Source of the DNA: a virus
Length of the DNA stretch: 10,108 nucleotides
Virus genome (UHGV): UHGV-0351028
Strand: one strand, 5' to 3'
Made by a program: the position numbers and the translations under genes. Below are positions 1 to 118 of this stretch, piece by piece. How positions within the stretch are numbered: the stretch's first letter is position 1; every line of letters begins with the position of its first letter. The notes under the pieces are model-generated. The model was given only the letters and a program-made list of their open reading frames with translations. It searched no databases and was not told where the DNA came from.

Positions 1-64
1 TTTCCAGAACCATACGGACTGCCCGTTGACGGACTTCGGGGGAAAAACGAGTATTTTTAGTCAT
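1..64 (-). CDS. IS3-family transposase OrfA, N-terminal fragment (continues beyond window)
   Basis: ATG at 62-64 (minus strand) gives MTKNTRFSPEVRQRAVRMVLE..., the characteristic N-terminus of IS629-type OrfA. The ORF is open to the window edge. Confidence 0.8.
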   Translation of the reverse strand, partial: MTKNTRFSPEVRQRAVRMVLE

Positions 65-118
65 CCTGTTTACCTCTTTCTCAGGAAGTTTAGTCTCCAG
101 GATTCCCGGGGCGGTTCA
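1..118 (-). mobile_element. Terminal ~118 bp of an IS3-family insertion sequence (IS629/IS1203-like), running off the window start
   Basis: Reverse complement of 61-118 reads TGAACCGCCCCGGGAATCCTGGAGACTAAACTTCCTGAGAAAGAGGTAAACAGGATGACT..., which I recall as the IS629-type inverted repeat and orfA leader. It begins with the IS3-family TG terminus. Lambdoid sequence resumes at 119. Confidence 0.8.

Follow-up and report, generated by a model that had tools for sequence, protein, structure and literature searches.

An IS629-group terminus interrupts the primase–helicase gene of a lambdoid Escherichia coli prophage

Results

A transposable-element end at the left edge of the prophage sequence

We analysed a 10,108-nucleotide stretch of DNA (UHGV virus genome UHGV-0351028), here called the window, whose left edge lies inside an insertion sequence (IS). 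Positions 1–118, minus strand, are the left (IRL, orfA-proximal) terminus of an IS629-group element of the IS3 family, of which 118 of about 1,310 bp are present before the window ends. Read on the minus strand from 118 to 1, this terminus runs TGAACCGCCCCGGGAATCCTGGAGACTAAAC...ATGACTAAAAATACT (longer start, TGAACCGCCCCGGGAATCCTGGAGACTAAACTTCCTGAGAAAGAGGTAAACAGGATGACTAAAAATACT...). It is identical, at 0/118 mismatches, to the opening 118 bases of a full-length 1,310-bp copy in strain 504239 (locus L003, 2501–3810, matching part 2501–2618), annotated 'IS3 family transposase, programmed frameshift'. At a single mismatch (117/118) it also matches the 1,310-bp copy in the Stx2a phage Stx2_499 (LC567824, locus L005), which its depositors labelled 'insertion sequence:IS3 family IS629', whose mobile_element feature begins at the base matching window position 118 and for which a target-site duplication (TSD), CCAG, is annotated. 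Identity to full copies and one mismatch to an annotated IS629 thus support an earlier note on this DNA, which had called the element IS3-family and IS629-like. Used alone as a query, window 1–118 matched IS copies in 3,606 of the 5,426 complete E. coli genomes searched; in 1,968 records the identity was 99% or higher.

The outermost bases of the element, at 94–118 on the minus strand, form an imperfect terminal inverted repeat (IRL), TGAACCGCCCCGGGAATCCTGGAGA, opening with the IS3-family 5′-TG. A comparison by eye within the full strain 504239 copy, its left end set against its reverse-complemented right end, gave agreement at 23 of 25 positions, and the TG...CA termini of the family are both in evidence: the left end TGAACCGCCCCGGG... 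at 118–94 of the window, and the right end ...CCCGGGGCGGTTCA in the identical strain 504239 copy. The transposase gene orfA begins with an ATG at 64–62 (MTKNTRFSPEVRQRAVRMVLE...) and fills positions 1–64 on the minus strand, in the same orientation as the adjoining phage gene. OrfA is annotated equivalently in Stx2_499 and in strain 504239, where it matches NCBIfam transpos_IS3. The window takes in just 21 codons at the start of orfA; the programmed −1 frameshift between orfA and orfB and the DDE transposase are known from full copies identical over the 118 bp.

IS629, IS1203 and IS3411 count as isoforms of one another, with a divergence of 4–5% among IS629 sub-types (PMC3271280). The elements carried under these names by Shigella sonnei and by E. 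coli O157:H7 prophages share with ours the terminal TGAACCGCCCCGGGAATCCTGGAGA..., the position of the orfA start and an identity of 117/118 to 118/118. Nucleotide identity and a common start base (118/118 with strain 504239, 117/118 with LC567824) place the element in this group; because 118 bp is too short to separate IS629, IS1203 and IS3411, we dropped the exact isoform call and 'IS629-group' is the defensible name. The same 118-bp end also has a 100% match under the int feature of AF017626.1, a 2.6-kb GenBank record of the phage 21 integrase region, a sign that a further lambdoid prophage gene may carry an IS629-group insertion.

The adjoining gene is cut within its Toprim domain

Next to the IS, positions 119–897 on the minus strand hold the 5′ 41% (codons 1–260) of a primase–helicase gene of the T7 gp4/Twinkle type, with its ATG at 897; RefSeq homologues start four codons later, at window 885. 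This retained part is frameshift-free and 98.7–99.5% identical in nucleotide sequence to genes annotated 'toprim domain-containing protein'. The closest intact allele, in strain TUM1880 (locus L001, 4887–6767, same annotation), encodes 626 aa and matches the window product at 256 of the 260 aligned residues of phage origin; past the break its protein continues as FISMDVDDVGREAAREI... for 366 more residues. By alignment to this allele the break follows codon 256 of 626, at 41% of the length, and not at the 3′ end of the gene, where the earlier note had put it. Homologues of the C-terminal part measure 624–629 aa in Escherichia, Salmonella, Citrobacter, Klebsiella, Pantoea, Erwinia and Xenorhabdus, under source names that include 'bifunctional DNA primase/helicase' and 'twinkle protein'. 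None of these intact homologues ends at the break, which bears out a truncation, and among the complete E. coli genomes with the gene, 286 of 296 hold at least 80% of its length.

The domain content of the two proteins differs accordingly. In the intact protein, Pfam places a whole Toprim_2 (profile positions 1–88) at residues 209–296 and AAA_25/DnaB_C at 355–594; the latter region, including the Walker A motif GVNGHGKT, is an SF4 (DnaB/RecA-like) helicase domain that is missing from the window product. The window product matches Toprim_2 over profile positions 1–35 of 88 only, at 19 bits, under the curated cut-off of 22.1 bits. Against PHROG 239, 'DNA primase/helicase', the fragment covers profile positions 32–254 of 801 and the intact protein 32–618; the fragment's match (3.5e-57 over residues 9–260) identifies the N-terminal and primase homology of the family. 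The earlier description of the 275-aa product as an N-terminal domain plus Toprim is not supported, as the Toprim is bisected (35 of 88 positions, below cut-off). The loss or separation of a C-terminal helicase domain was correctly anticipated: the SF4 domain seen in the intact homologue lies beyond the break.

The intact protein aligns to T7 gp4 (5ikn, 6n7i, 1q57; E about 1e-23, best 2.6e-23) and to Twinkle (8e2l; 6.5e-14), the T7 gp4 match spanning Toprim, linker and SF4 helicase. As in both of these proteins, Toprim precedes DnaB_C/AAA_25. With T7 gp4, the alignment pairs CEGEID with TEGEID, MDVDD with FDMDE and YKDIN with CKDAN (query first), so that the acidic EGEID motif lies before the break, and the DxD (MDVDD) and a third conserved Asp after it. 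We take EGEID, MDVDD and YKDIN to correspond to T7 gp4 E157/E159/D161, D207/D209 and D237, if chain 5ikn_D starts at residue 64, and presume for them the catalytic role of the matched residues in the T7 primase literature. A complete Toprim, with Glu and DxD, is found in the TUM1880 homologue and not in the window product. Whereas T7 gp4 carries a Cys4 zinc ribbon, the N-terminal ~95 aa of the window protein hold a single Cys and no ribbon; their resemblance to the N-terminus of DnaG is weak (TIGR01391 positions 27–155, far below cut-off). Unlike T7 gp4 and Twinkle, the window copy stops inside Toprim, without a helicase.

The locus varies in other ways elsewhere. In E. coli O157:H7 Z852 (L006, 1489–4395), the gene has a 1,026-bp in-frame insertion, giving 968 aa against 626, with Hint and LAGLIDADG matches at about residues 379–634, within the helicase domain; this allele, labelled only 'toprim domain-containing protein', is an apparent intein-containing form, and an intein-like pattern recurs in many O157:H7 and O111:H8 genomes. 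An IS4-like ISVsa5 sits directly downstream of the intact gene in TUM1880 (L001, 3669–4877), beside a truncated HNH endonuclease pseudogene; in another lineage, too, this region was struck by an IS. In the Lederbergvirus Escherichia phage vB_EcoP-720R6 (L004, 1868–3767), the 'DNA primase/helicase' homologue is annotated as two CDSs of 1,629 and 225 nt, a split for which a frameshift or an error in the deposited sequence may be responsible. A 554-aa protein on six contigs (P0004), combining Phage_rep_O with AAA_25 and 100% identical to the helicase part, looks like an O–helicase fusion produced in another lineage by deletion of the primase half.

The phage sequence ends at the first base of the IS

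We searched window 1–1400 against the 5,426 complete E. coli genomes with megablast. All prophage matches begin at base 119, and the junction is absent from all 5,426 genomes. With a slash for the break, the uninterrupted site in TUM1880 reads ...TTTGAGGAAAT/ATTCATCTCGATGGACGTTGATGAT (also given as GAGGAAAT/ATTCATC), and the window reads ...TTTGAGGAAAT/TGAACCGCC. The earlier note had the lambdoid sequence stop at 118 with an IS terminus there, which agrees with phage homology starting at 119 and with 1–118 being an exact IS left end. Judged by sequence, the phage DNA abuts the exact first base of a known IS; this cannot be chance, and it therefore marks the junction as an apparent product of transposition, unlike an assembly mis-join.

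A reading frame crosses this junction. At 70–897 on the minus strand, a chimeric open reading frame of 275 aa joins 260 phage codons to 15 IS codons (EPPRESWRLNFLRKR) and a TAA, and its translation, ending ...NLDRFEEI/EPPRESWRLNFLRKR and then stop, reproduces the 15-codon tail reported earlier. The IS-derived codons lie at 117–73 and the stop at 72–70; the codon of Ile-260, ATT at 120–118, takes its third base from the IS, which begins there. With its TAA ending 5 nt before the ATG of orfA, the chimeric frame stops on the orfA Shine–Dalgarno sequence.

The exact 275-aa protein was found on only two short contigs, the matching one being identical to the window and also stopping in the IS. The ENA contig ERZ652471 NODE_185 (9,981 bp) is 100% identical to window 64–10044 and may stem from the same reads, which makes its independent support weak. 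It is shorter by 63–64 bases per end, and both sequences end inside repeats at both ends, which suggests that the two window ends are repeat-induced assembly breaks, with the ENA contig being the same strain assembled at a different k. At the right end, a new open reading frame (ATGCAAATTTCACCGG..., 10017–10108, plus strand) begins just after an Ea22-like gene and runs off the window.

The rest of the early region appears intact

Upstream in the same operon as the primase–helicase gene lies the rest of the replication module (882–2344, minus strand). It comprises an O-type initiator (1484–2344, minus strand; Pfam Phage_rep_O, 1e-37, full profile) and a free-standing NUMOD4–HNH homing endonuclease (882–1376, minus strand; Pfam NUMOD4 and HNH_3; PADLOC 'homing endonuclease', 3.6e-21), both apparently intact. 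The endonuclease gene sits between those of the initiator and the primase–helicase and overlaps the start of the latter; it occupies the same place in only 5 of the 5,426 complete E. coli genomes, most matches ending at 873/884. No lambda-P-like loader was seen in the window. The module thus pairs an O-type initiator with a gp4-like primase–helicase instead of lambda O/P, and phages of this kind are on record as having diverse replication modules (PMC8044961, PMC8951638).

Ten other window proteins scanned against Pfam gave full-length family matches or no match, and none looks cut; cI, cro, cII, N, the O-type initiator and the HNH endonuclease are essentially full-length family matches, and all 17 of the 17 genes called on the ENA contig are complete open reading frames. 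Between cI (3251–3964) and N (6014–6397), the slot of rexAB in lambda, two plus-strand genes overlap (4114–5522); the product of one is a DUF6932 protein of 159 aa, and that of the other, of 310 aa, drew no Pfam match. The pair matches the PADLOC candidate defence system PDC-M63 (M63A, 1.8e-41; M63B, 7.5e-45). Because TUM1880 carries PIN/NYN proteins there instead, the cI–N slot looks like a swappable site for defence cargo.

Discussion

We consider it highly probable (about 0.88) that an IS629-group element transposed into the primase–helicase gene of a lambdoid E. coli prophage, leaving an inactive fragment and a probable replication defect. The identity of the IS, its exact junction with the phage gene, the point of truncation and the missing parts are observed; we infer a simple insertion as the type of event. 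IS3-family elements transpose by a copy-out-paste-in route with a circular intermediate. Under this reading, an element of about 1,310 bp, oriented like the gene itself, would have entered the latter between codons 256 and 257; the prophage is a Lederbergvirus/Stx-phage-like mosaic of the lambdoid type. The insertion would split the Toprim fold between EGEID and the DxD (MDVDD), and separate or remove the linker and the SF4 helicase. Target duplications of IS629 are 3–4 bp (PMC3271280), and, set against the intact TUM1880 site, they point to AAT at 119–121 on the minus strand (AAAT at 119–122 if 4 bp) as the presumed left TSD copy. A simple insertion would then give a right junction ...CCCGGGGCGGTTCA-AAT-ATTCATCTCGATGGACG, that is, the IS629 IRR, AAT(A) and ATTCATCTCGATGGA....

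Two readings would remove the insertion altogether. The contig might end in a repeat and the adjacency of IS and phage be a mis-join in the assembly graph; in favour of such an artefact, the ends of both sequences, window and ENA contig, lie in repeats, 63–64 bases apart per end as is typical of short reads, and the two perhaps have reads in common. The phage sequence, however, meets the exact first base of the IS (TG...), and a mis-join would need a long stretch shared by the IS and the phage gene, of which none exists, the intact gene continuing ATTCATCTCG; we regard it as highly improbable. Still less credit, close to none, goes to the proposal of a gene that normally ends at the break and naturally yields the 275-aa protein as a short isoform with primase alone. 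Nothing but the open reading frame itself favours this, whereas near-identical alleles go on for 366 codons, the carrier genomes overwhelmingly retain most of the gene (286/296), the last 15 codons are IS sequence and the Toprim match falls under the Pfam cut-off. With a 626-aa allele and homologues of 624–629 aa in hand as well, we rejected this isoform.

A more serious alternative, possible if clearly the less likely course, is that the IS marks the endpoint of a deletion or rearrangement and not a simple insertion. The 3′ part of the gene would then be missing or no longer its neighbour, and the nin/Q/late region may have shared this fate. An adjacent deletion mediated by IS629 or recombination between IS629 copies could produce this, and the weight that we give it reflects that matching 3–4-bp duplications still flank only 21 of 47 IS629 copies among O157:H7 genomes (PMC3271280). 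It would also fit two negative results. Scans with exact and degenerate patterns left the right junction (IRR, 2–6 nt and TTCATNTCNATGGAYGT...) unmatched in species-representative genomes and JGI metagenome contigs, but the left junction is missing from these two collections too, making their silence uninformative. Among homologues of the C-terminal 370 aa, a high-identity fragment of about 366 aa forms no cluster of its own, yet such fragments may sit within the 5,632-member cluster P0003. Simple insertion, for its part, is the default outcome of transposition.

The earlier note took the truncation to help date a degrading prophage, and this part of it we do not retain: the other window proteins scanned look uncut, the IS end shows no difference from active copies and the insertion is absent from 5,426 genomes. 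A single, recent, strain-private hit appears to fit better than long decay. Its recency is suggested by full-length neighbours, by a 5′ part that is 98.7–99.5% identical and free of frameshifts, and by an IS end found identical elsewhere; that it is strain-private is suggested by the junction's occurrence in 0 of 5,426 genomes, the presence of the protein on only two contigs and the 286 of 296 carriers with at least 80% of the gene.

IS629 disruption of lambdoid prophage genes is already well documented, and the present case is an ordinary one, calling for a pseudogene annotation and carrying a plausible replication defect. The group likewise interrupts a regulatory gene beside O in Stx2_499, annotated 'interrupted by IS629', and early or replication-region genes in the IS-inactivated lambdoid prophages of EHEC O157:H7. 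The site found here, with 118 bp of the element visible, occurs in none of the 5,426 complete E. coli genomes; unlike the defective O157:H7 prophages, the window shows a single lesion, and the remaining early region looks intact.

With the metal-binding half of Toprim and all of the helicase missing, the 275-aa chimera should have neither primase nor helicase activity. Since the prophage would combine an O-type initiator with a dead primase–helicase, and no lambda-P-like loader is seen, it is probably unable to replicate its own DNA after induction unless complemented in trans, a function that a co-resident prophage could supply; the earlier note's suggestion of a replication-defective prophage is to this extent reasonable. 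The IS runs parallel to transcription from pR, and because N antitermination is classically able to lift the polarity of insertions, genes downstream of the IS, if still present, might still be expressed. The position of the chimeric stop on the orfA ribosome-binding site and the alignment of the IS with pR also raise the idea that prophage induction, through the SOS response, CI cleavage and N antitermination, drives and translationally couples the IS629 transposase as an induction-triggered transposition switch. We think this improbable. A hairpin in the read-through RNA at the junction that would hide the orfA start (AUCCUG with CAGGAU) had an energy no better than shuffled sequences (z = −0.33).

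In practice, the 275-aa open reading frame should be annotated as a pseudogene fragment of a 626-aa primase–helicase and not as a short primase, and the contig end should carry the label of an IS629-group terminus. Beyond annotation the finding has little significance, adding one more IS629-crippled lambdoid prophage. With cI, cro, N and the O-type initiator looking intact, such a prophage would perhaps still be inducible but would be predicted not to amplify its genome, which would mean a lower phage yield and a lower dosage of any late-region cargo.
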